Below, one piece after another: positions 27,870 through 48,806 of a DNA stretch of 55,090 nucleotides. Numbering within the stretch: position 1 is the first letter of the stretch; every line of letters starts with the position of its first letter. The notes beneath the pieces were generated by a model that saw only the letters and a program-made list of their open reading frames with translations, ran no database searches and had not been told where the DNA came from. Position numbers and translations under genes: made by a program. The DNA comes from an uncultured virus (IMG/VR IMGVR_UViG_3300049489_000201) (lineage: Duplodnaviria; Heunggongvirae; Uroviricota; Caudoviricetes): the IMG/VR virus record IMGVR_UViG_3300049489_000201; one strand, written 5' to 3'.

Positions 27870-28007
27870 CGGTAGTCCACCTCACCTTCGGGTGCCCAAA
27901 GACAGGCTAGTTAGCCATAAGAGTAAAAACGCAAAGGGCGGGGTTGTCCACAGCGTTTTCTGTCAGGTGTGGACGAGATAGTAAACGTAAACCCCGCCTA
28001 AGCGCGT

Positions 28008-29114: not shown

Positions 29115-29143
29115 TTGACATGTGCAGGGGCTAGTGGTATGAT
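29115..29143 (+). promoter_or_regulatory. Promoter embedded in a 12-bp inverted repeat
   Basis: TTGACA-N17-TATGAT with extended TG. Confidence 0.7.
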
Positions 29144-29207
29144 CTATCCATCAAGAGTTACAAGCGTTGGTCAAACGGCTTGGCTCGATACAGAAGGAAG
29201 TAAAACA

Positions 29208-30053
29208 ATGACCGTCTACCTTGTGGGTTCTCTAGACGGAGAACCCATTACTTTTGCCCCTAAGCAGGGGCTCTACTCGGACAACACGCCCTGGATGAAG
29301 GGCTACCCTCCGAAGGGGATGCAGATCGATGATGTATTCATCATGCAGTCCTCACTGCAAGACTTTGTTGCATCTATGATGTATGTTCGTGCAGCGCTTA
29401 ACACAATGACAGAAAAGACCCGACTGGTCATCCCATTTTATCCAGGTGCTCGCCAAGATCACCCAAGTACGATTGGTGATGTTCTGGGCACAAAGGGCTT
29501 TGTTACTCAGTGGGTGAATGAATTAGAGCCGTTCTTTGCTGAAATTGTCGTTTTTGACATGCATTCTGAGCGACTCAACCCGCGCAGGCTGCGTAACATC
29601 ACGCCAGCAGAAATCATTGCTGCCAATCCTGGGTTCAACCCGACTCCTGGGTACTATGATACGATCATCGCTCCCGACCATGGTGCAACGGCCAGGGCTG
29701 AGGAAGTGGGCGCTCTGTTCCACACACCAGTGATCGTAGCCGATAAGATCCGTGACCTGTCTAACGGACGTATCACGCACTACGAAATCGATACGTCACA
29801 GACAGAAATGAAAAAAGTACTTGTCGTTGACGATATTTGTGACGGCGGGGCGACATTCGAAATCCTTGCAGATTCTCTGCCGATAGGAACAGAGCGCCAC
29901 CTATTCGTCACACACGGACTATTCAGTCGCGGAACAGATAATTTACTTTCATGGTACGACCGCATCATCACAACCAATAGCGTTTACCGCGAAAGCGGCC
30001 ACAAGCGCATTTCAGTCATCGACCTTTTCCCAGGAGTGAGTTTTAATGTTTAA
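29208..30053 (+). CDS. Ribose-phosphate pyrophosphokinase-like protein (Adps-like)
   Basis: PFYPGARQD, D.HS, APD.GA..RA, VVDDICDGGATF, VTHGLFS. Confidence 0.9.
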   Translation: MTVYLVGSLDGEPITFAPKQGLYSDNTPWMKGYPPKGMQIDDVFIMQSSLQDFVASMMYVRAALNTMTEKTRLVIPFYPGARQDHPSTIGDVLGTKGFVTQWVNELEPFFAEIVVFDMHSERLNPRRLRNITPAEIIAANPGFNPTPGYYDTIIAPDHGATARAEEVGALFHTPVIVADKIRDLSNGRITHYEIDTSQTEMKKVLVVDDICDGGATFEILADSLPIGTERHLFVTHGLFSRGTDNLLSWYDRIITTNSVYRESGHKRISVIDLFPGVSFNV

Positions 30054-31479
30054 CCCTACGACCCTTATCGACGGATACAAGACCGATCACCGTCGACAGT
30101 ACCCCGACAAGACGGAGTACGTATATAGCAATTGGACCCCACGCGGATCGCGCGTGCCAGGAGTAGAGCGAGTCACGCTGTTCGGATTGCAGTATTTCCT
30201 CGACCGCTACCTCATGGACGAATTCTACGAGTTCTTCTCGGGCGACGTTGATATTGCCTGTAAGCGCTACGAGCGTCGCATGAATGGCTACCTTGGCCCT
30301 AACAACATTGGCACCGACCATATCCGTGCGCTGCACGAACTTGGTTACCTACCGCTGGAAATCTGTGCTATTCCTGAGGGTAGCGATGTTCCCCTGCGTG
30401 TGCCTATGCTGACCATTACAAACACGCACCCCGATTTCGGGTGGCTAGTCAACTACATGGAAACTCTGCTGTCCGCACAGTTGTGGCTTCCTTGTACCAG
30501 TGCAACAACCGCTAAGCATTTTCGCAAGCGTTTGGATTACTGGGCTCGTCGTACGGGAACCGACCAGGCGTTTGTTGATTGGCAGGGTCACGACTTCTCG
30601 TTCCGTGGAATGTCTGGCGTCGAGGCTGCTGCGCTTTCTGGCGCTGGTCACCTAATTTCGTTCACAGGAACAGATACAATTCCTGCGCTCGATCTGATTG
30701 AAGATTACTACGCATCATCCGACTTTATCGGTGGATCTGTCGCAGCAACCGAGCACTCGGTTATGTGCGCGGGCGGATCAGAGTCCGAGGGTGAAACATT
30801 CGACCGACTAATGGATCTATACCCAAGTGGTATTCTGTCAGTTGTTTCGGACACCTGGGATTTCTGGGGCGTTCTTACAGATATTCTGCCTGCGCGCAAG
30901 GACAAGATTCTTGCTCGTGACGGCAAACTGGTCATTCGACCTGACTCGGGCGACCCTGTTAAGATCGTTGCTGGTGACCCTGACGCCGTTCCTGGTACGC
31001 CAGAATACTACGGCGCGGTGGAAATGCTGTGGAAGACCTTCGGCGGAACCACAACGGACGCTGGATACAAGTTGCTAGACAGCCACATCGGAGTTATTTA
31101 TGGAGATAGCATTACTTACGAGCGCGGCGATCAGATCCTCGCAGAACTCGCGCGAAAGGGCTTTGCTTCTGGTAACGTTGTATTTGGTATCGGTAGTTAC
31201 ACTTACCAGTACGTCACCCGTGACACCTACGGATTTGCCATGAAGGCTACGTGGGTTCAGATCAACGGCGAAGGTATGGCTATTTTCAAGGATCCGAAGA
31301 CTGATAATGGCCTCAAAAAGTCCGCAAAGGGACGCTTGGCTGTCATCAACGACGAAGTTATTGATGAGGCTACGCCTGAGCAAGAGGCGGTGTCGCAGTT
31401 GCAGCCCGTGTGGCGTAATGGCGAGTTCGTCAACCGTCCGCTGGGCTTTGACGAGGTTCGCAGAAACGCTAGACAGTGA
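30046..31479 (+). CDS. Nicotinamide phosphoribosyltransferase-like protein (NadV/Namat-like)
   Basis: DGYK..H..QYP, HDF.FRG, ATEHSVM, SVVSDTWD, IRPDSGDP, KKSAKG. Confidence 0.95.
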   Translation: MFNPTTLIDGYKTDHRRQYPDKTEYVYSNWTPRGSRVPGVERVTLFGLQYFLDRYLMDEFYEFFSGDVDIACKRYERRMNGYLGPNNIGTDHIRALHELGYLPLEICAIPEGSDVPLRVPMLTITNTHPDFGWLVNYMETLLSAQLWLPCTSATTAKHFRKRLDYWARRTGTDQAFVDWQGHDFSFRGMSGVEAAALSGAGHLISFTGTDTIPALDLIEDYYASSDFIGGSVAATEHSVMCAGGSESEGETFDRLMDLYPSGILSVVSDTWDFWGVLTDILPARKDKILARDGKLVIRPDSGDPVKIVAGDPDAVPGTPEYYGAVEMLWKTFGGTTTDAGYKLLDSHIGVIYGDSITYERGDQILAELARKGFASGNVVFGIGSYTYQYVTRDTYGFAMKATWVQINGEGMAIFKDPKTDNGLKKSAKGRLAVINDEVIDEATPEQEAVSQLQPVWRNGEFVNRPLGFDEVRRNARQ

Positions 31480-33610: not shown

Positions 33611-33639
33611 TTGACACCGAAGCCGTGACACGCTATACT
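33611..33639 (+). promoter_or_regulatory. SigA-type promoter
   Basis: TTGACA-N17-TATACT. Confidence 0.8.
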
Positions 33640-33698
33640 TGGTGGATCAGGGAAGCAGAGGAGTGGGCTGGTCACCTCTTTAAAAACGCGCCTACCAT

Positions 33699-33772
33699 GG
33701 CCCTGTACCAGAATTGGCATATGGACTCGACTCAAAATCGAGGGTTTGTGGGTTCGACTCCCACCTGGGCTA
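33699..33772 (+). tRNA. tRNA-Leu(CAA), short variable arm
   Basis: CTCGA-CTCAAAA-TCGAG. Confidence 0.85.
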
Positions 33773-33773
33773 C

Positions 33774-33868
33774 TTGGACGAGAAAAACGCGGTAAGTATA
33801 CGTGGCGCGTGGCGGAAAGGAACAGCCGCCTGGGTCTGGAATTGCACCCAACAGCCTCGTCCAAACCA
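33774..33868 (+). ncRNA. Unknown four-way-junction RNA ending ACCA
   Basis: 9-bp TTGGACGAG/CTCGTCCAA closes three 5-bp hairpins. Confidence 0.6.
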
Positions 33869-33869
33869 T

Positions 33870-33942
33870 GGCCTCTTATCCCAGCGGCAGAGGAAAGCGG
33901 CTTAAACCCGCTCAAGCATCGGTTCGAATCCGATAGGGGCTA
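33870..33942 (+). tRNA. tRNA-Leu(TAA), short variable arm
   Basis: AGCGG-CTTAAAC-CCGCT. Confidence 0.88.
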
Positions 33943-33960
33943 CTTAACAAAGGATTATAT

Positions 33961-34140
33961 ATGCGACCACATGAAATCGCTTGCAGTCTATTCGTCAAAC
34001 TCCAAGACATGGAAGACGTGCAGCGCGCATTCACATATAAGACAGAGTGGTTCGGCGGGGATGCAGTGCTCCTACACGTCACAGATACCATGAAGAATAC
34101 AACAGAAACGTTCGCCCTATTTGTGGGCTCAAAAGTATAA
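33961..34140 (+). CDS. Small hypothetical protein, 59 aa (absent from ORF track)
   Basis: AAGGA RBS; MRPHEIACSLF... Confidence 0.6.
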   Translation: MRPHEIACSLFVKLQDMEDVQRAFTYKTEWFGGDAVLLHVTDTMKNTTETFALFVGSKV

Positions 34141-34174
34141 CGTGATAGAATAACAATCTACGATTAGGAGACTG

Positions 34175-34921
34175 ATGACTTACCCTGAGTTCCAACTTCT
34201 AGAGGCCCCCGCAGATGCCTCGCCGGAACAGATCAAGGATATCGTCGCTGCCAATACAGCGATCCTTGACTACCGACAGAAGATCGATGACTTAGAAATT
34301 GACGTGCTAGAGCGTCAAAAGACCAAGATCGATCTAGAGGTAGCAGAAATCGAACTGGCTAAGAAAAAGCACTGGGCCAGCAGAGACGTAGACGCATACC
34401 GCTACCGTAGCGGCGTCTTCACGCTTTATGACTACGTAGATGATTACTCGTGCAAGCAGGTCATCAACGACATTACCGTGTGGCACAGCATTACGCCTAA
34501 GGGCACGCCACTGCAACTAAACATCAATTCATACGGTGGCTCTGTTACTGATGGTTTCGCGCTATTCGATACGCTACGTTACGTCGCGGAAGATGGTGAC
34601 CGTAAGGTCAAGACTGTCAACCTCGGTGTTGCTGCTTCGATGGGTGGAATTCTGTTGCAGGCTGGTGACGAGCGTGTCGTTACCCCGTCCAGCATTCTGA
34701 TGATCCACGAGGTTTCGTACGGTGTTGGTGGCTCCGCTGCCCGTCACCGTGACACAATGGACATGTCCGACATTCTGGCCGCTCGCATAATCGAGGTATT
34801 TTCAGAGCGTTCGAACCTGACGCCAGATGAATTCAAAGACAAGTGGGATCGCCGCGACTGGTGGCTGTCCGCTGCTGATGCACTTAAGTTCGGCTTCGCT
34901 GACCGCGTAGCCTTCTCGTGA
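34175..34921 (+). CDS. clpP: ClpP-like protease with N-terminal coiled-coil extension
   Basis: INSYGGSV.DG.A.FD, G.AASMG, LMIHE, RDWWLSA.DAL.FG.AD. Confidence 0.92.
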   Translation: MTYPEFQLLEAPADASPEQIKDIVAANTAILDYRQKIDDLEIDVLERQKTKIDLEVAEIELAKKKHWASRDVDAYRYRSGVFTLYDYVDDYSCKQVINDITVWHSITPKGTPLQLNINSYGGSVTDGFALFDTLRYVAEDGDRKVKTVNLGVAASMGGILLQAGDERVVTPSSILMIHEVSYGVGGSAARHRDTMDMSDILAARIIEVFSERSNLTPDEFKDKWDRRDWWLSAADALKFGFADRVAFS

Positions 34922-35026
34922 CAAGACTGGCCGAGCATCGGGTAAGGGCGGGACTCAAAGCAAAGATGCTGACACTCCCAGCCGCCAGGTCTTGACGCAC
35001 CAACTACCAACTGATAGGATGCTTGC

Positions 35027-35230
35027 ATGAAGATCAAGAACAAAGACATTTATTCGACAGATCAGGCTTGGCTTGATACAATTGCAGAGGAGTACGAATC
35101 CGCTGGCTTTTCAGTGGTCAAGGCTCCTGGCAAACTGACTGTGCTGGCAATCAAGCCGCGCAAGCAGAAGCCAAAGGAAGATCAGAAGTCTACTCGCAGG
35201 CCCACCAAGCGACCTGGTGCACGCGAGTAA
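35027..35230 (+). CDS. Hypothetical protein
   Basis: Leaderless; TTGACG-N17-TAGGAT-N6-ATG. Confidence 0.65.
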   Translation: MKIKNKDIYSTDQAWLDTIAEEYESAGFSVVKAPGKLTVLAIKPRKQKPKEDQKSTRRPTKRPGARE

Positions 35231-35236
35231 CATAAT

Positions 35237-35324
35237 GGAATAGTCACCCGACAGTTGGCACCGGGGCCTCTTTGCTAAAGAGAGTGGGCGCAAGCCCGTG
35301 CAGGATCATCCCCTGTCTATTCCG
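35237..35324 (+). tRNA. tRNA-Ser(GCT), atypical T-loop
   Basis: GGAATAG/CTATTCC-G; loop TTGCTAA; long variable arm; T-loop ATCATCC. Confidence 0.75.
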
Positions 35325-35328
35325 CTCC

Positions 35329-35666
35329 GGGGACGCAAGGTATCGATCTTGTGTTTGAGGTATAAAGTGGCAGTCGGTTCGGTTGACCTAATCAACCAAC
35401 AAAATAATAAATGCAAACGAAGATGCAGTCGTAGCCGAGGCTATGGCTAATATCGACGCTGAGTACGAGGCGCTTTGCGCCAAGTACGCACTGGCAACAG
35501 TATAAGCGTCCGAGCGGCAACTGCTTAGGAACAGAAAGTTGCAAACCGCCTGAGAGGGCACCCTGTAATGCCAGCACTAAAGTAATACCGGGGGCGGATA
35601 CCCATGACTGTATCTACAGAATATCGATTAACAAGACACGCGGGTTCGACTCCCGCCGTCTCCACC
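35329..35666 (+). ncRNA. ssrA: tmRNA
   Basis: GGGGACG/CGTCTCC-A acceptor with G3-U70; T-arm; resume codon after ATAAAT; tag ORF 35413-35505. Confidence 0.93.
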
Positions 35667-35681
35667 TAGAAAGGCACAGCA

Positions 35682-36008
35682 ATGTATGAGGTAACTACAT
35701 ATAGCGGTACAGTGCATTTGTTCGACACGGAAAACAAACTACACATGCGTAATTCAACGCGCGATCTCGGCCTTAGGGCCGATGGTCAGTGGTCTGCCTA
35801 TACCGATCTTGGTGTGGCAAATACTCCCGAGGGTGACTGCCTGCTGGTTCGCTATACAAATGGCGAGTGGCTTGCCACCTCACTTGTTCGATCCGTGAAA
35901 CTAGACGGCGTTGAAACTGATTTCATAGTCCTTGGGCCAGCCTTTCTAGCGGGGGTAAACGAAAAGCATGACGCCATACAGGTAAGGAAGTATAGCCGTA
36001 ATGCGTAG
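35682..36008 (+). CDS. Hypothetical protein
   Basis: GAAAGG RBS, 108 aa. Confidence 0.7.
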   Translation: MYEVTTYSGTVHLFDTENKLHMRNSTRDLGLRADGQWSAYTDLGVANTPEGDCLLVRYTNGEWLATSLVRSVKLDGVETDFIVLGPAFLAGVNEKHDAIQVRKYSRNA

Positions 36009-36279
36009 GCAAATCGACACCGACCGAGTTTATCGGGTGATTGAGACATACGACTTCATTATAAACGGAATGGCTACGCCTAGGCGTAGTGTTATGGGGC
36101 CATATCTTAAGATCGGTGCGGCCAAAGGCGTTCGCACCAATCAGATCAACATGTATAACCTATGGCATGACCCGAACAATCCGCGCTCTGTTACACAAAA
36201 TCGATCACCAATGGTGTCGTACCATAACTATGAATGTTACATCGAGATTTCAGACCCGCTGGTCTGGACCAGAGTTTAA
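36001..36279 (+). CDS. Hypothetical protein
   Basis: AAGGA RBS, 92 aa. Confidence 0.65.
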   Translation: MRRQIDTDRVYRVIETYDFIINGMATPRRSVMGPYLKIGAAKGVRTNQINMYNLWHDPNNPRSVTQNRSPMVSYHNYECYIEISDPLVWTRV

Positions 36280-36287
36280 GGATAAAC

Positions 36288-36917
36288 ATGAGGCACAAGT
36301 TAAGACTGACCATCGACTTCGATGATTTCTTCGTGACCTCCGACAACCACTTTGGTCACAATATGATGGCTCAGACCATTCGTAAGTTCAACAGCACTGA
36401 GGCTCACGACCAGTTTATGGTCAATCAGTGGAACGCTCGCGTATCGCCCAGCCAGACTGTTCTGGCGCTAGGAGACTGGTCTTTCCTCAATGTTGAGCGG
36501 ACCCAGCGCATCATGGATCAATTAAACGGCACCATATTTATCGTGCCAGGAAACCACGATGACTCGCGTAGATTGGCCAAGTGGTTCCCCGAGCGCGTGC
36601 TGCCAGAAATGACCAACGTTCGACTGACTGATCCAAATAACGGTGAAAAATTGTCGTTCGTTGCCTGTCACTACCCGTTGGCAGCCTGGGACGGCTCTGA
36701 CAAGGGCTCACTGCATTTGCACGGTCACTTGCACAGCGTTGGAAACGAAGTTTCGCACCATTTCTGTGCGCCTTACCAGGGCGCGGGAAACAGGTTTGAC
36801 GTAGGTATTGACAACGCTGGTTGGTTCGGGTATCCTAGTGGTCCAGTTCCTATCCGGGCGGTCATCAGAGAGCATGAGCGTCGGCGGGAAGCATGGAGAC
36901 AACTAAATGAAGCATGA
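36288..36917 (+). CDS. Metallophosphoesterase
   Basis: SD.HFGH, LGD, GNHD, HYP, HGHLH, DVG.D. Confidence 0.9.
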   Translation: MRHKLRLTIDFDDFFVTSDNHFGHNMMAQTIRKFNSTEAHDQFMVNQWNARVSPSQTVLALGDWSFLNVERTQRIMDQLNGTIFIVPGNHDDSRRLAKWFPERVLPEMTNVRLTDPNNGEKLSFVACHYPLAAWDGSDKGSLHLHGHLHSVGNEVSHHFCAPYQGAGNRFDVGIDNAGWFGYPSGPVPIRAVIREHERRREAWRQLNEA

Positions 36918-37069
36918 TTTTGTACGAGACGATAGTGTTTGGCAGGAAGATCCACATGACGCATGGTATAAATGTCGTCGTTGCGGTGAGGCTGAATGGC
37001 GCTGTTGTTGGTACGACATGGAGACGGAAGAATGTCCTTCCAGTCAAATGGAGTTATTTTGATGACTAA
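36914..37069 (+). CDS. Small hypothetical protein, 51 aa
   Basis: ATGA overlap on the left, short overlap with the next start. Confidence 0.4.
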   Translation: MILYETIVFGRKIHMTHGINVVVAVRLNGAVVGTTWRRKNVLPVKWSYFDD

Positions 37070-37463
37070 GATATACGACGACATGTATAATGAGCATGAA
37101 TATGTCGTCGTAGTTCCACCTGGTGATACAGAAAAATGGCCAATTGATGTGGCTGTGCTTCCAATTCTTAGCGACCTATGGTCAAACGGAATTCTAACTA
37201 GGGCTAGTTGCCAAGGTGGACCGTGCGAGTATGTTGATGAAGATATGGAAGGCTATATCTACTTCGATGATTCGGTAAAAGACCTACGGCCCGCTATTGC
37301 AATTATGAAACGCAATGGATTAAAAAACTTACGAGTGAAGCGTTTAGACGGTGGCATAATGGGCAAGTTTACCGAGTCTCCGCGAGGTCGGGTCGCTAAG
37401 TCACCAAACTTTACCCGGTGGCTCGTTACCTTTGACTCGATTGGTCTTGACGGAAACAACTGA
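37062..37463 (+). CDS. Hypothetical protein
   Basis: ID....PI...LW..GI.T..SCQG motif; GGAG RBS. Confidence 0.7.
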   Translation: MTKIYDDMYNEHEYVVVVPPGDTEKWPIDVAVLPILSDLWSNGILTRASCQGGPCEYVDEDMEGYIYFDDSVKDLRPAIAIMKRNGLKNLRVKRLDGGIMGKFTESPRGRVAKSPNFTRWLVTFDSIGLDGNN

Positions 37464-37475
37464 TCGTGCTATACT
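37447..37475 (+). promoter_or_regulatory. SigA-type promoter
   Basis: TTGACG-N17-TATACT with TG. Confidence 0.8.
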
Positions 37476-37530
37476 TGTGTTCACGACACGAGCGAGAGGG
37501 TGGATGCAACCTCTTTAAAAACATCCACAT

Positions 37531-37601
37531 ACCCCGGTCGTCTAACGGCAGGACGGTGGGTTTTGGTCCCACCTATCGAGGTTCGAATCCTTGCTGGGGT
37601 G
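37531..37601 (+). tRNA. tRNA-Gln(TTG)
   Basis: GTGGG-TTTTGGT-CCCAC. Confidence 0.9.
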
Positions 37602-37703
37602 CTGGCTCGACGGAGCCTGGGAAGATGGTGGGAAATGAGGGAATTACCCCGCCGGGTTGCTAAGACGATGCCATTCCCCTTCGCTCAAAGCAACACCCAC
37701 AAT

Positions 37704-37776
37704 GCCTCGTAAGCATCTTAGGAGAAGCGCTGCTCTTGTAAAGCAGAGGTAGCCGGTTCGAATCCGGCACGAGGCT
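37704..37776 (+). tRNA. tRNA-Thr(TGT)
   Basis: CTGCT-CTTGTAA-AGCAG. Confidence 0.9.
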
Positions 37777-37788
37777 CGTAAAATATAT

Positions 37789-37859
37789 AGGCCGTTGGTG
37801 TAGTGGTAACACAAATGCTTCCAACCCATTTGTCCGGAGTTCGATTCTTCGACGGCCTG
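37789..37859 (+). tRNA. tRNA-Trp(CCA)
   Basis: A1-U72, G73; loop TTCCAAC. Confidence 0.82.
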
Positions 37860-37903
37860 CTCTGAACTTATTGCTAAGATATCAGATGTGCTATACTGGT
37901 GGC

Positions 37904-38329
37904 ATGGAAACAAAACGATGCCCAAAGTGCGATGAGTTTAAGATGCGCGAACAATTCACGACGAAGCGCGGAGGCTTTGGGTCGTATTGTAAGCAATGTA
38001 AGTTAGAGTATGACAAGCAATACTACGCAAAAAACGACTCACGCCAGAAGTGGCAACGAGAGCAAAACAAAAAAGTAGCCAAGAGAAATCAAGACTACGT
38101 ATGGAACTATCTACTAAATCATCCATGTGTTGATTGTGGCGAGTCTGACCCAGTAGTTCTAGAGTTTGACCACCAGAAAGATAAAATTTCTGGAGTGGGA
38201 AAAATGTCTAGCAAGCAAGTTTCTATTTCTAAATTGCAAGCAGAGATAGATAAATGTCAGATTAGGTGTTGCAATTGTCATCGTCGTAAAACAGCAAGAA
38301 CATTAGGATGGCACAGTTATTCAAGATAA
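37904..38329 (+). CDS. HNH homing endonuclease-like protein
   Basis: CxxC...CxxC, PC.DCG.....LEFDH, EI.KC...C.NCHR; leaderless. Confidence 0.88.
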   Translation: METKRCPKCDEFKMREQFTTKRGGFGSYCKQCKLEYDKQYYAKNDSRQKWQREQNKKVAKRNQDYVWNYLLNHPCVDCGESDPVVLEFDHQKDKISGVGKMSSKQVSISKLQAEIDKCQIRCCNCHRRKTARTLGWHSYSR

Positions 38330-38401
38330 CGGAGTGTAGTGAAATGGTAATCACGGCAATCTGATACATTGCAATCGGAAGTTCAATTCTTCCCATTCCG
38401 A
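38330..38401 (+). tRNA. tRNA-Ile(GAT)
   Basis: GCAAT-CTGATAC-ATTGC; acceptor CGGAGTG/CATTCCG. Confidence 0.85.
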
Positions 38402-38412
38402 CGTAAAGTTAA

Positions 38413-38483
38413 TCCCAGTGGGTGTGATGGCAGCACTATAGTCTCTGACACTATCGGACGTGGATCGAAACCATGACTGGGAG
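38413..38483 (+). tRNA. tRNA-Gln(CTG)
   Basis: ATAGT-CTCTGAC-ACTAT; T-loop ATCGAAA. Confidence 0.82.
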
Positions 38484-38487
38484 CAAT

Positions 38488-38558
38488 GGTTCTGTAGTTA
38501 AATGGTATAACGAGTGCTCGACACGCACTTATTCTAGGTTCAATTCCTAGTGGAACCA
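38488..38558 (+). tRNA. tRNA-Val(GAC)
   Basis: AGTGC-TCGACAC-GCACT (C33). Confidence 0.85.
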
Positions 38559-38562
38559 CGCT

Positions 38563-38964
38563 ATGAAGGAATGCTCGGCGTGCCACAATAATTTCTCGAC
38601 GGAGCAGTTTGCCGCGAGATCATCTATGTGCAAGCCATGTCATAATTCATACACAAGAGATCACTACCAAAAGAACAAGCAATACTATAAGAATAAGGCC
38701 AGGGCGCGCGAAGCACAGTCGAGAGCCCTAATTTCAGAATACAAAGCATCTACACCCTGTGCAGACTGCGGACTTTCGTACCCCGCCGTGTGTATGGATT
38801 TTGATCACCTGAGCGACGACAAGTTATTCAACATTGCTAGTCGCGCGAAGAGTGGATTTTCTAAAAGTGTAGTTGCTGAAATGCAGAAGTGTGAGTTGGT
38901 TTGTGCTAACTGCCATCGACTGCGAACACAAATGCGGGTATCGCCTAACGGATATGGCACTTGA
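38563..38964 (+). CDS. HNH homing endonuclease-like protein
   Basis: PCADCG.....MDFDH, KCELVCANCHR; paralog of 37904. Confidence 0.88.
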   Translation: MKECSACHNNFSTEQFAARSSMCKPCHNSYTRDHYQKNKQYYKNKARAREAQSRALISEYKASTPCADCGLSYPAVCMDFDHLSDDKLFNIASRAKSGFSKSVVAEMQKCELVCANCHRLRTQMRVSPNGYGT

Positions 38965-39010
38965 CTACGAATCAAGCACAATGTAGGTTCGAATCCTACT
39001 ACTCGTACCA
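38934..39010 (+). tRNA. tRNA-Arg(ACG)
   Basis: CTTGA-CTACGAA-TCAAG; encoded CCA. Confidence 0.9.
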
Positions 39011-39043
39011 TATTTATCCCGCCCTACGACCAAAGGACAATCA

Positions 39044-39403
39044 ATGAGTTTTGAGCCCTGCTCAATTCTATTTTATGGCGGGCCCATGCATGGACGAATA
39101 ATGACCGTTGATCGCCCGACATATGTTGTGCACACACAGGGACCGCCACAATTTTTTCATCAAGATAACATGACCGAGTGTACGGTGCCCATGCCAAAGC
39201 GGTTTTACTATAAATATACTCCAATCAAAAACTTACGGGTAGATATTGATTTCCACAGTCATAGGGTAACCAATACAGTAACTCAGGGTTACGCCATGGT
39301 TTGCGACGCCAAAAAGTATGACAGCGCCAAGGTTTGGCGCATGATGGAGCGGTATAAGACAATACCAGGATATTCTGAGATAACTTGGCCTGTTCCACAG
39401 TAA
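39044..39403 (+). CDS. Hypothetical protein
   Basis: AAGGA RBS; F.GGP.HG motif. Confidence 0.65.
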   Translation: MSFEPCSILFYGGPMHGRIMTVDRPTYVVHTQGPPQFFHQDNMTECTVPMPKRFYYKYTPIKNLRVDIDFHSHRVTNTVTQGYAMVCDAKKYDSAKVWRMMERYKTIPGYSEITWPVPQ

Positions 39404-39419
39404 GTGGTATCATATATGT

Positions 39420-39689
39420 ATGGCTATTCCAACTTTAACCGCGTCGCTTAATAAGGCGACCTACGCACCTGGTGAGAACATGTTGCTCACCATCAACTAC
39501 GCCGATGCTGACAATCAGTCAGTAAGCGTTACCATCGTCGTGACAGACGCAGCAGGAAATAGTTCTGCTCCTGTGACAGCCGCCGCCTTCATCAAGGATG
39601 CAGCAACACTTACAGTTACCGAAACCGGCAAGGTCTGGACCAAGGTATCTGACAACGGTGCGGTAGCGGTATACTCGCGGACGGCGTAA
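39420..39689 (+). CDS. Small Ig-like beta protein
   Basis: LNKATYAPGE.M.LT..., VTDAAGN; leaderless. Confidence 0.7.
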   Translation: MAIPTLTASLNKATYAPGENMLLTINYADADNQSVSVTIVVTDAAGNSSAPVTAAAFIKDAATLTVTETGKVWTKVSDNGAVAVYSRTA

Positions 39690-40556
39690 ATGCCAAACGT
39701 ATCTGTATCTGTTACTGACGGGTCTGGACAGACAAGCACAACATCAGTAAATTACACTGTTGCTGCTTCGTCAACCCGCCCGGCACTTTTAGTGCCTGGC
39801 TATGCTGTAGAGAAATTCTACGACGACTTCAAAACCTTCGACACCACAAAGTGGACTAAAAATACTGGTCCGCTCGGTGCGCCTCGTGAAGAATACAACC
39901 GCGCTGAAAATGTGACCATTGGGCCAGACGGGCTGCAAATCACAGCAAAGCGTGAGGCATACGGTGGCAAGCAGATCACATCTGGATATGTCACCAGTTC
40001 TGGCAAGGCAGCATTTGGCCCGTATGCGCTGTTTGAGGCAGAAATTACGATGCCGAAGATGTCTCCACCTGACTCAGCAGGTCTTTGGCCTGCGTGGTGG
40101 TTGCGCTACGACACGCTGCCGGGAGAAATTGATACTCTAGAGGCGTACGGTAGGCCGTTTGCAGCCGCACGGACGTCAGCAGACACGCTGATTATGACCG
40201 AAGCCTACGAAGTTACGACTCACGGAAACACTAATGGAAGCCTTGGTAGGCTTAATGCTCAGGCCCCGACCGGATCGGTTAAGGATCTAACAAGGCATCG
40301 CTACGGCGTCGCTATTGACGCTGTTGGCATCACGTACTACCTAGACGGACAACCAGTTCTAGATAAGTATGGACGTAACCCTATGTCATGGGCTACACTT
40401 GCTACCAAGAACGTTCCACAGGCTAACTTTATGGCTGCCGCGCACATGCGCTTGCAGTTGCAGGTTGGCTCAAGTTACTGGGGGCCGTCTAATGCACAAA
40501 CAGCGTTGCCAGCAACGATGAAGGTTCACTGGACAAGAGTTCTAACTAAGACTTGA
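39690..40556 (+). CDS. GH16-family glycoside hydrolase
   Basis: FYDDF..FD.TKW, GLWPAWW, GEIDTLE. Confidence 0.85.
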   Translation: MPNVSVSVTDGSGQTSTTSVNYTVAASSTRPALLVPGYAVEKFYDDFKTFDTTKWTKNTGPLGAPREEYNRAENVTIGPDGLQITAKREAYGGKQITSGYVTSSGKAAFGPYALFEAEITMPKMSPPDSAGLWPAWWLRYDTLPGEIDTLEAYGRPFAAARTSADTLIMTEAYEVTTHGNTNGSLGRLNAQAPTGSVKDLTRHRYGVAIDAVGITYYLDGQPVLDKYGRNPMSWATLATKNVPQANFMAAAHMRLQLQVGSSYWGPSNAQTALPATMKVHWTRVLTKT

Positions 40557-40582
40557 CAGGCCCGCAGCCAGTCTGGTATAGT
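40553..40582 (+). promoter_or_regulatory. SigA-type promoter
   Basis: TTGACA-N18-TATAGT. Confidence 0.75.
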
Positions 40583-40644
40583 ATTCCATACGACGCCAGA
40601 GCCGCTCTAGTCCTGGGGAGAGACTTAAAACCTTCCCTCCACCT

Positions 40645-40715
40645 GGGGCGTGAAGTGTAAGGGTAGCACAAAACACTTGCAATGTTTTAGAGGGGTTCGA
40701 CTCCCACACGCTCCA
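40645..40715 (+). tRNA. tRNA-Ala(TGC)
   Basis: G3-U70; AAACA-CTTGCAA-TGTTT. Confidence 0.85.
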
Positions 40716-40721
40716 CTTGCT

Positions 40722-41271: not shown

Positions 41272-41339
41272 CGCTCTGGATCTGGTGATCAATCTCGTCT
41301 CATAAGCGAGTCAGTTGGGATCGTTACCCAATGGAGCGA
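41272..41339 (+). tRNA. tRNA with CAT anticodon (Met or Ile2), shortened D region
   Basis: CTCGT-CTCATAA-GCGAG; T-loop ATCGTTA. Confidence 0.7.
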
Positions 41340-41342
41340 CAA

Positions 41343-44164: not shown

Positions 44165-44199
44165 ATACCTACTGATCAGGGCGAGAGTCCAGATCGTAA

Positions 44200-44465: not shown

Positions 44466-44558
44466 GGCAGGGCAAGCCGAATTTTGGACGACGGCACTCG
44501 CCTTGAAAGCGAGCGAGCGTAACAGCCTTGAGGGTTCGAAACCACTCTCCTGCCGCCA
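44466..44558 (+). tRNA. tRNA-Ser(TGA)
   Basis: CTCGC-CTTGAAA-GCGAG; long variable arm; GCCA end. Confidence 0.85.
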
Positions 44559-44590: not shown

Positions 44591-45046
44591 ATGGATAAAG
44601 ACTGTAAAAAGTGCGGCGAGACAAAAAATGTAACAGATTTTCATCTGGCAGATTCAAAAACTAGACGCCGCCGCAATCAGTGCAAGGCGTGTCAAGCAAA
44701 GTATATTTCGGCGTATAAAAATGCTGATCCAGAAGCAATGCGTGATCGCTGGCGCAAAGCAAGCAGGAAATACTATAAAACAGAAAACAGAAAAAACAAA
44801 ACGCTCAGACAATATAGTCTTGATGAGTCTACGTACAACGAAATGTACGACTCACAAAACGGCGAATGCGCGATATGTCATCGCTCTATAACCTTAGTGG
44901 TAGATCATTGCCACACAAAAGGGGTTGTCCGTGGCCTACTTTGCAACATGTGCAATGTTGCATTAGGTTGTATGCAGGATGACGTTGACAGGTTGCGCGC
45001 GGCGGTGCTATACTTAGAACTTGCAGGCGGTAGGTTGGATATCTAG
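44591..45046 (+). CDS. Endonuclease VII-family homing endonuclease
   Basis: Q.G.CAIC....L.VDHCH..G.VRGLLC..CN..LG; leaderless. Confidence 0.9.
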   Translation: MDKDCKKCGETKNVTDFHLADSKTRRRRNQCKACQAKYISAYKNADPEAMRDRWRKASRKYYKTENRKNKTLRQYSLDESTYNEMYDSQNGECAICHRSITLVVDHCHTKGVVRGLLCNMCNVALGCMQDDVDRLRAAVLYLELAGGRLDI

Positions 45047-45101
45047 TCAAGTCTCATAAACTTGAAATAAATGCGGTTCGATTCTCGCAGCCCTGCTACC
45101 A
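45022..45101 (+). tRNA. tRNA-Met(CAT), atypical
   Basis: TCAAGT-CTCATAA-ACTTGA; GCAGG/CCTGC; ACCA end. Confidence 0.7.
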
Positions 45102-45329: not shown

Positions 45330-46080
45330 TAGCATTAAAACAGGCATGGCTGATATGCATACGTGAGTATGCGAAAGGTGTGTGACAATCACCGCCCATT
45401 GGGTAATCCATGCAATCCGAGACTACAACGAGTTCAGCAACAATGGACCGGGGTGGCGTAAGTTCGGTGGGCAACGGAAAGTTCTGAGCCCTCCCCTCCA
45501 CGCAGGAGGATAGCCGATCAAAACGAGCGCTATTGGTAGGAAGGAAGGAACAGAAGTCCGAGGCGTCAACCAAGGGCGGGTTCCATGAAGCAGCAAAAGT
45601 GGTGTGGCGACATCATAAGTAGCAGCAGAGATTGAGAGTACCTGACAAGGAAATCATATCGAGGTAGTGGAGCATTCTGTGGGACAAAATCTCACGGACC
45701 TTCTAGGGAAGCGCTTCCTCCGTCTTACACGTATTGATTAATGGTAAATCAATTGGCATTTAACCAATGAATACAGGTTCGAATCCTGTTACAAAGCAAA
45801 AGACTTCCCTTGTTCGTGTTCGAAAGCGCCTTAATGCTTGGCCCTCCGGGGAACCAAGCGCGATCCTAGCCGCAAGCGAAGATTGTTCCATCGCCAGTAA
45901 TGCAGTCAAGAGGCTTGCTACCTCTGGGCGAAGTAAAAACGGTGGAGTGGAATGCGAATATAAAGAGTGGTAGGCTATACCGACCAGGCGTGACAGTTAC
46001 CATGGGGACATGGTGGAAACGACGGGAAACAATAATCCGTCAAGAGACTGTCAAGAGCGGGAGTATTCTCATCCCAATCA
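45330..46080 (+). ncRNA. GOLLD-like large non-coding RNA (boundaries approximate)
   Basis: About 750 nt purine-rich with no credible ORF, inside a tRNA array; 3' motifs AAGCAAAAG, CGAAAG..CTTAAT, GTGGA...AATAATCC..CAA and GTATTCTCA resemble GOLLD as recalled. Confidence 0.75.
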
Positions 46081-48759: not shown

Positions 48760-48806
48760 TAAACCACTCCGGGCGGAAGCGGTGAAAGCCGTGCCGCACC
48801 GGGCAT

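Follow-up and report, generated by a model that had tools for sequence, protein, structure and literature searches.

A free-standing pseudoknot of the tmRNA PK1 type directly upstream of phage tRNAs

Three tRNA leaders carry an H-type pseudoknot

Three tRNA units in a 55,090-nucleotide (nt) stretch of DNA from an uncultured tailed virus (IMG/VR record IMGVR_UViG_3300049489_000201, Caudoviricetes; hereafter the window) begin with a small H-type pseudoknot, placed on the + strand between a promoter-like site and the first tRNA. The knots had been proposed from the sequence alone (the original prediction), and all copies are present as described, with one correction: copy 1 starts at 33657 as given and ends at 33695, not 33696.

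The tRNA-Leu(CAA)/Leu(TAA) unit is served by a sigma70-type promoter-like site (TTGACA-17-TATACT, 33611..33639, +; 11/12 matches) that is kept in the closest relative, a viral contig termed G001, and its transcription probably starts near A33646. An 11-nt 5' segment, ATCAGGGAAGC (33646..33656, +), identical in G001 and resembling the stretch before pseudoknot 1 (PK1) in a Corynebacterium transfer-messenger RNA (tmRNA), leads into copy 1 (33657..33695, +). Stem 1 of this copy (33657-61/33675-79) has five Watson–Crick pairs and stem 2 (33663-68/33690-95) has six pairs, one of them G-U; an A-rich loop spans 33680-89, and tRNA-Leu(CAA) (33699..33773, +) follows 3 nt behind. From a second promoter-like site (TTGACG-17-TATACT, 37447..37475, +; 10/12 matches), also kept in G001, transcription of the Gln unit would start near A37483. 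Copy 2 (37494..37528, +) pairs 37495-99 with 37510-14 in stem 1, gains a G-U pair at 37494, forms seven Watson–Crick pairs in stem 2 (37500-06/37522-28) and stands 2 nt before tRNA-Gln(TTG) (37531..37602, +). The third promoter-like site (TTGACA-18-TATAGT, 40553..40582, +; 11/12 matches) would start the Ala unit near A40590. Here, copy 3 (40609..40637, +) has a distinct stem 1, AGTC/GACT (40609-12/40622-25), and a stem 2 (40615-20/40632-37) with one G-U pair; a competing 5' hairpin is predicted at 40592-40612, and tRNA-Ala(TGC) (40645..40716, +) lies 7 nt behind.

No terminator-like site was found in any of the three knot leaders, and each knot is followed by a tRNA, not by a reading frame with a ribosome-binding site. 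The letters before the 3' strand of stem 1 are CA, AA and GA in the window copies, and TA and CA in those of G001. Eight tRNAs in the window count as promoter-proximal, though for two of them either the promoter is weaker or the tRNA was called at relaxed settings; three have knot leaders, two have plain hairpins and three have short leaders. The hairpins, before tRNA-Pro (44171..44199, +; -10.7 kcal/mol, z -3.3) and tRNA-Phe (48766..48806, +; z -3.3), both end 3 nt before the tRNA, and the latter is kept in G001 with other letters (z -5.3). Among the pieces listed from contigs of the sequencing runs (two RNA libraries, share 0.06; 82% likeness), none but tRNA matches covers copies 1 and 2. 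Copy 3 is spanned by a contig from one relative, and the 13 listed of its 16 differences all fall outside the knot; this demonstrates neither expression nor RNA ends.

The knots exceed chance expectation within the window

Knots were scored as the number of pairs minus G-U pairs plus half the G-C pairs, with pair counts from ad hoc scripts. Among 79 TAAAA runs on both strands, only the three leader copies score at least 11; under a looser loop rule 16 sites score at least 12, and just the three leader copies end within 10 nt of a tRNA. With the cut-off at 12, which equals the score of the weakest copy and was hence set post hoc, 3 of 28 leaders of tRNAs and the tmRNA called by ARAGORN qualify, compared with a mean of 0.064 and a maximum of 2 in dinucleotide shuffles (0/1000 reach 3). 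Shuffles did as well as copies 1, 2 and 3 in 2, 0 and 1 of 1000 cases, and random windows scored at least 12 in 14 of 5000. The 13-mer CCTCTTTAAAAAC, allowing up to two mismatches, has 2 matches against 1.15 expected, which alone is not significant, and nested folding, which cannot model a knot, found no unusual stability in the three leaders (z +1.3, -1.2 and +0.1). We regard the three-knot observation as confirmed and real.

The knot recurs before tRNAs in other viruses and covaries

We scanned viral, metagenome and species-genome collections with a pattern that required stem 1, the loop and, 54-84 nt further on, the T-loop of a tRNA, but placed no demand on stem 2. The scan gave 87 distinct matches, 26 of which have a tRNA directly behind, and a strong stem 2 (score ≥7) occurred in 10 of these 26 versus 3 of the 61 others (Fisher p 2e-4). 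When tails were swapped among the 21 non-genome rows, the observed mean stem-2 value was never reached in 2000 tries. A repeat with two other stem-1 sequences, at an unchanged cut-off, found a strong stem 2 in 7/10 tRNA-adjacent matches versus 0/13 (Fisher p 5e-4), and both scans pooled gave 17/36 versus 3/74 (p 1e-7). Flank BLAST groups the 17 strong tRNA-adjacent rows into 12 lineages. The gap between knot and tRNA is 0-8 nt (median 4), and the tRNAs behind are Thr, Leu, Gly, Ile, Trp and one type with a CTA anticodon (one call uncertain).

Both stems change compensatorily, so the proposal that loop–tail pairing is kept with different sequences stands: the covarying pseudoknot is real. At the same site within one lineage, locus L150 combines AGAGG/CCTCT with GGGAT/ATCCC, and L416 combines AGAAG/CTTCT with GAGGAT/ATCCTC. 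Loops 1 and 2 are 0-8 nt long, and none of their letters is invariant. The covariation of the stems also bears on a boxA-type antitermination signal bound by NusB/NusE, which the original prediction had raised. The letters CTCTTTAA look like enterobacterial boxA, and they are promoter-proximal in stable-RNA units. They form, however, the 3' side of stem 1 and vary in step with its 5' side (GACT, CTTCT, CTTGT, TTGGT, GCTC, CGTC); neither copy 3 nor the arrays described below keep boxA-like letters, and no promoter lies within 75 nt in any of the 17 rows. Since the supposed boxA letters covary as a stem and do not behave as a single-stranded linear sequence, a boxA reading is not supported and we regard this function as extremely improbable.

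The absence of promoters from those rows also removes the proposed tie to promoters, as in other viruses the element follows a tRNA or a stop codon. At L223 and L255 the knot begins 2-3 nt after another tRNA; at L158, L187, L190, L415 and L437 a stop codon or reading-frame end lies, by eye, shortly upstream, with no tRNA or promoter between. The upstream neighbour varies (promoter, tRNA or reading frame), and the tRNA downstream is constant. One explanation that draws on the reading-frame contexts is a 3' cap, in which the knot, after the ribonuclease (RNase) P cut, buries the new 3' end of the upstream messenger RNA against 3'-5' exonucleases, on the model of the triple helix before mascRNA in MALAT1, which protects a 3' end. 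A reading frame does end shortly upstream in several lineages, and stem 2 ends 0-8 nt before the cut. The explanation nevertheless fits only contexts behind a reading frame: in the window and in G001 the knot is preceded by no more than 11-19 nt, and at L223 and L255 there is nothing to cap because a tRNA ends 2-3 nt upstream. We consider a 3' cap improbable.

In one 190-kb gut-phage lineage, 14 loci carry two, three or four units in tandem, repeating every 41-46 nt, and at L099 four different knots lie between two tRNAs; BLAST of the gut-phage array matched only the tRNA-Leu of two Pseudomonas phages. Arrays of this kind, including the mixed ones of L099, favour the view that the knot itself is the product: a stable 45-55-nt RNA would be released by RNase P on its 3' side and by transcription start or a tRNA 3' cut on its 5' side, and would work in trans, in the manner of pseudo-ToxI, by luring away a host protein that binds pseudoknots, for example a type III toxin RNase. 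In the window the knot makes up nearly the whole leader, and G001 shares the first 11 nt of that leader letter for letter. Phage TE expands pseudo-ToxI repeats and thereby escapes ToxIN (PMC3475682), and each ToxI unit folds into an H-type pseudoknot of 34-36 nt that bears single-stranded tails (PMC5086642). The type III antitoxins ToxI and CptI and the pseudo-ToxI repeats share with our element 34-45-nt H-type knots, tandem arrays and a copy number that varies within one lineage. Repeats of type III antitoxins (ToxI, CptI, TenpI), however, lead to a terminator and a toxin gene, whereas the leader knots lead to a tRNA (the L150 and L099 arrays end at one) and their letters are not conserved. 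Even a single genome shows free variation in the letters of stems and loops, in contrast to the high specificity of ToxI–ToxN pairs (PMC5086642). Moreover, the window copies are single, copy-number change in an array can be plain slippage, and no Rfam ToxI-type match was found in the window or in eight loci. We judge a decoy unlikely.

Among species genomes, one of five distinct tRNA-adjacent matches has a strong stem 2, that of Corynebacterium callunae (L255), with two G-U pairs. On the C. callunae chromosome a knot-compatible spacer occurs twice between tRNA-Val and tRNA-Gly (L255:401-432 and 705-736). At L446:301-411 a knot lies directly 5' of a tRNA with a CTA (amber) anticodon. Loci L187, L189, L190 and L223 are probably viral, given their tRNA density, as is L225, given its likeness to another related record, G002. 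Two candidates were rejected: L217 (stem-2 score 5), which looks chromosomal by eye, and L371, the best match of a pattern lacking stem 1, which by eye lies inside a tmRNA.

G001 (locus L119) is a complete 115-kb viral contig found by a search anchored on DUF7275, which gave two loci, the other (L120) without a tRNA cluster; a search anchored on a ClpP-like gene had no matches in viral or metagenome contigs. Besides the promoters and the 11 nt ATCAGGGAAGC, G001 retains two parts of the knot, stem 1 and the A-rich loop, in front of both tRNA-Leu(CAA) and tRNA-Gln(TTG); in the Gln copy, stem 2 is altered to AGAGC/GCTCT. A promoter-anchored pattern matched 24 loci, with a tRNA behind only at the two G001 copies.

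The fold is that of tmRNA pseudoknot 1

As judged from sequence, the knot fold is tmRNA PK1, standing alone. In the tmRNA family (RF00023), PK1 likewise has a 5-base-pair (bp) stem 1, a 0-2-nt loop 1, a 5-8-bp stem 2, a short loop 2 and a (T)TAAAAA crossing loop, and the same parse, often with the same letters, applies to the window copies, to Streptomyces phage Anedea (L171) and to Leptospira (L402). The leader knots differ from tmRNA in having no tRNA-like domain, resume codon or tag frame, in the tRNA standing 0-8 nt behind, and in forming tandem arrays. Around them neither ARAGORN nor Rfam found a tmRNA; the only one detected in the window, at 35329-35667, encodes a 30-residue tag ending ALATV, and its PK1 is unlike the leader knots. 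Anedea has the knot in its tmRNA only, with none before its tRNAs in 75-120 kb. An unannotated 80-nt tRNA-like gene of the same phage (L172, PP978811.1:84210-84289) scores 32 bits on the tmRNA model. In Escherichia coli, PK1 can be replaced by unrelated sequence, and its role is thus structural (PMC2481249).

A scan with the window stem 1 and loop, free of any tRNA condition, gave at least 94 distinct viral matches. Among the 94 listed, 14 lie at the PK1 place of tmRNA genes, as assigned by ARAGORN or flanking motifs (12 with a strong stem 2), 4 are near tRNAs, 16 precede a ribosome-binding site and ATG, and 60 lie in other settings. Six loci (L012, L032, L051, L053, L056 and L065; match at ~401) combine the same stem 1 and loop with GGACTT after the 5' strand, ATC before the stem-1 3' strand and a ribosome-binding site behind, making them candidates for preQ1-I-like cis-regulation.

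The matches in tmRNA genes (at least 14 of the 94 listed) suggest a relic, in which fragments comprising a helix-2 strand and PK1 were copied before tRNAs by cluster recombination and persist as harmless spacers. The Leptospira tmRNA (L402) has nearly the same stem-1 3' strand and loop, and a Corynebacterium tmRNA (L404) has CAGGGGAAGC before PK1 where copy 1 has CAGGGAAGC, in a post hoc comparison. Since GATCAGGG also starts the hairpin leader at 44171, it may instead be a promoter-proximal motif. The window phage's own tmRNA has a different PK1, and both stems change compensatorily at orthologous sites, which implies selection on the fold. A tmRNA origin and a present function are compatible; a relic may explain the origin but not the covariation, and as a complete account it seems quite improbable.

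Resemblance to ligand-binding and nuclease-related RNAs is partial

The original prediction had missed tmRNA PK1 as the closest match and had likened the knots to class I preQ1 aptamers, a likeness that survives as a shared scaffold only. No Rfam family reaches its cut-off on the three copies. The best sub-threshold match is SAM-II (RF01726) on copy 2 (12.6 of 44 bits, E 4.5), GP20-b (RF03003) matches copy 3 on a stretch cut at its 3' end (10.5 of 36.2 bits, E 7.1), and wcaG (RF01761, cut-off 42 bits) has no match in the window and exceeds its cut-off in 0/5 related records, its weak matches not being at knots. In the Rfam check proposed earlier, PreQ1 matched none of the three copies at E ≤ 10; PreQ1 (RF00522, cut-off 39 bits) is likewise over cut-off in 0/5 related records and reaches 11.5 bits at the L099 knot. 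Leader knots and preQ1-I share a compact H-type knot of ~35 nt with a purine-rich stem 1 and an A-rich crossing strand. What the leader knots do not have is the preQ1-I specificity motif directly before the P1 3' strand, which is UC in type I and AC in types II and III (PMC11625349); they also differ in a long, freely varying stem 2, a tRNA 2-7 nt behind, and the lack of a terminator or Shine-Dalgarno platform and of queuosine genes. The absent UC/AC and the sub-cut-off Rfam score argue strongly against a preQ1 sensor.

The NAD+-II (pnuC) riboswitch comes near in another way: its stem 1 holds five adenosines in the minor groove, followed by a C, with G41 and C54, which belong to a G6-U7/C40-G41/C54-A55 pocket, holding nicotinamide mononucleotide (PMC9841397). 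The window copies lack its P1a and have A at position 41 in all three, and their stem 2 is variable, whereas the NAD+-II knot is an invariant 3 bp formed with the Shine-Dalgarno sequence (PMC9841397).

The ligand sensing suggested earlier would then require an orphan aptamer, built on the preQ1-I/NAD+-II scaffold, that controls how RNase P reaches the first tRNA: its junction (an A before stem 1 and a C after the A run) would bind a small molecule and, by holding or releasing the last bases before the tRNA, turn RNase P maturation of the phage tRNAs on or off. No paper on a 'mini NAD+-II' class turned up in literature searching. All three window copies and both G001 copies do carry, where NAD+-II has G41 and C54, an A just before the stem-1 3' strand and a C just behind the A run, in addition to the stem 1 and five-adenosine crossing strand of NAD+-II. 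Copy 3 and the Gln copy of G001 each have a predicted competing fold, and the window encodes a nicotinamide phosphoribosyltransferase. Across lineages, however, the junction letters vary (TT, GG, GT, AT and GC also occur), the C of copy 2 is paired in stem 2, and the knots lack what the two aptamer classes need, the invariant 3-bp knot and G41 of NAD+-II (PMC9841397) or the UC or AC of preQ1-I. No NAPRTase/NAMPT family match was found in G001, G002, G005 or G006 (0/5 records), and the leaders offer no terminator or ribosome-binding site to switch. A ligand switch is therefore very doubtful. The phosphoribosyltransferase gene adjoins a ribose-phosphate pyrophosphokinase-like gene (29115-31479), a pair resembling the NAD-rebuilding anti-defence pair.

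Two further comparisons concern RNA processing and decay. Coremin consists of a 3-5-bp hairpin with a YGAD loop of 4-6 nt, a conserved 10-nt CUAC spacer and a helix behind (PMC10321173, PMC6546385). Like Coremin and xrRNA-WCC, the leader knots have a short hairpin, a UUAAA-type spacer, a knot, a helix behind (here the acceptor stem) and tandem copies (PMC6546385, PMC10321173). Unlike Coremin, they have a loop of 9-13 nt (versus 4-6) and a stem 2 of 5-9 bp (versus 2-3), lack YGAD and CUAC, and come from a bacterial DNA phage. Theta ribozymes are pseudoknotted RNAs attached to gut-phage tRNAs, too, and have a proposed processing role; they are hepatitis delta virus-like and proposed to cut the 3' trailer (PMC10879173), whereas the leader knot is a single small knot on the 5' side with a variable end distance.

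Genomic setting of the knot leaders

The window is part of a large tailed phage, whose DnaE polymerase is 50% identical to those of Streptomyces phages such as Wakanda and Braelyn; from these relatives we would guess at an actinobacterial host. It contains 27 tRNAs and one tmRNA (ARAGORN) and, by Rfam, a GOLLD RNA, which is full-length (45660-46075, 218 bits) and whose start is also present in G001. Two HNH genes and one endonuclease VII-type gene lie among the tRNAs (37871-38329, 38563-38964 and 44591-45046). BLAST of the tRNA cluster against isolate phages returned nothing beyond tRNA and HNH matches, and leader 1 had chance matches in T4-like nrdB genes only.

Directly 5' of the tmRNA lies a cloverleaf (35236-35325) whose anticodon is GCT and whose D and T loops are odd; ARAGORN and Rfam missed it on the + strand. 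G001 has it too, and there a base change in the anticodon stem is matched by a compensating one. Three additional candidates appear at a relaxed ARAGORN threshold only: tRNA-Met(CAT) at 41272-41340, tRNA-Ser(TGA) at 44468-44554 and tRNA-Met(CAT) at 45023-45097. Two strongly folded inter-tRNA spacers (33774-33869 and 27871-28007) carry a AAAAACGC motif, with a similar motif in the G001 Ala leader, and are possibly another spacer RNA family.

A possible 5' boundary of tRNA precursors

We favour, at a probability of roughly 45%, the interpretation that the knot would be a portable 29-39-nt, protein-free boundary of the tmRNA PK1 type, set 5' of a tRNA within multi-gene precursors and shielding the 5' end of the precursor until RNase P cuts. 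Sequence comparison supports the fold (two stems and an A-rich crossing loop), its position 0-8 nt before the tRNA, and the free variation of stem 2 and the loops. Folding while being transcribed, the knot would prevent leader bases from mispairing with the acceptor stem, leave host RNase P a few unpaired bases, and slow 5'-end-dependent decay of the precursor, which RNase J or RNase E carry out, after transcription start or an upstream cut. It would sense no ligand and would be exchangeable with a plain hairpin, as suggested by the two other long promoter-proximal leaders, hairpins that end at an equal distance (3 nt). We prefer a boundary because this one reading covers all three upstream contexts, namely promoter, tRNA and reading frame, and it is in line with the replaceability of E. 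coli PK1 by unrelated sequence (PMC2481249). Of the functions first suggested, processing reads best; the covarying boxA letters disfavour antitermination, and the varying junction letters disfavour ligand sensing.

Several observations weigh against a boundary. Three of the eight promoter-proximal tRNAs manage with a short leader (8-21 nt from the -10 box), which shows that a long folded one is dispensable. A stem 2-3 nt from the cut site could hinder RNase P. Known frameshift pseudoknots do not stall Xrn1, and a knot alone therefore need not block an exonuclease (PMC10321173). The first-scan contrast depends on the cut-off (11 versus 8 at cut-off 6, p 0.004; 12 versus 19 at cut-off 5, p 0.22), and a Mann-Whitney test on its stem-2 scores gives p 0.098. 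A pattern without stem 1 scored at least 12 in 1 of 55 tRNA-adjacent matches, within the shuffle range (mean 0.35, max 2), which makes the element rare. Its exclusivity to the 5' side of tRNAs is not supported either, because the scan patterns demanded a downstream tRNA, and the scaffold occurs with a strong stem 2 away from tRNAs in at least 12 of 80 non-tmRNA matches (tail-swap mean 3.3, max 10). In G001 the Leu copy retains just three stem-2 pairs, a nested hairpin is the better fold for the Gln leader (-15.3 kcal/mol, z -4.0) and no knot was found in the Ala leader; for these reasons G001 is good evidence for stem 1 and the loop but gives stem 2 partial support.

The fold itself is known, and we describe a real, conserved and uncatalogued variant of it whose function we infer. 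A free-standing knot module 5' of phage tRNAs is absent from Rfam 15, and no paper on such a knot before phage tRNAs was found in the literature searched, which includes PMC2864571, PMC5737381, PMC10879173 and PMC10690425; the catalogues belonging to PMC5737381 and PMC10690425 may nevertheless list the motif.

Large phages carry dozens of tRNAs, in part as substitutes for host tRNAs cut by defence nucleases. How these tRNAs are excised from long precursors and kept intact is little known, and theta ribozymes concern the 3' side only. A 35-nt 5' module in unrelated viruses, at times in expanding arrays, offers a cheap and testable handle on 5' processing. That a scaffold common to tmRNA PK1, preQ1-I and NAD+-II is reused without a ligand pocket calls for caution in riboswitch annotation. 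If the ligand switch were true after all, it would be a riboswitch with tRNA processing as its output, rather than termination or translation; should the knot instead turn out to stop RNase J or to sequester a defence RNase, phages would be seen to have a new RNA tool in it.

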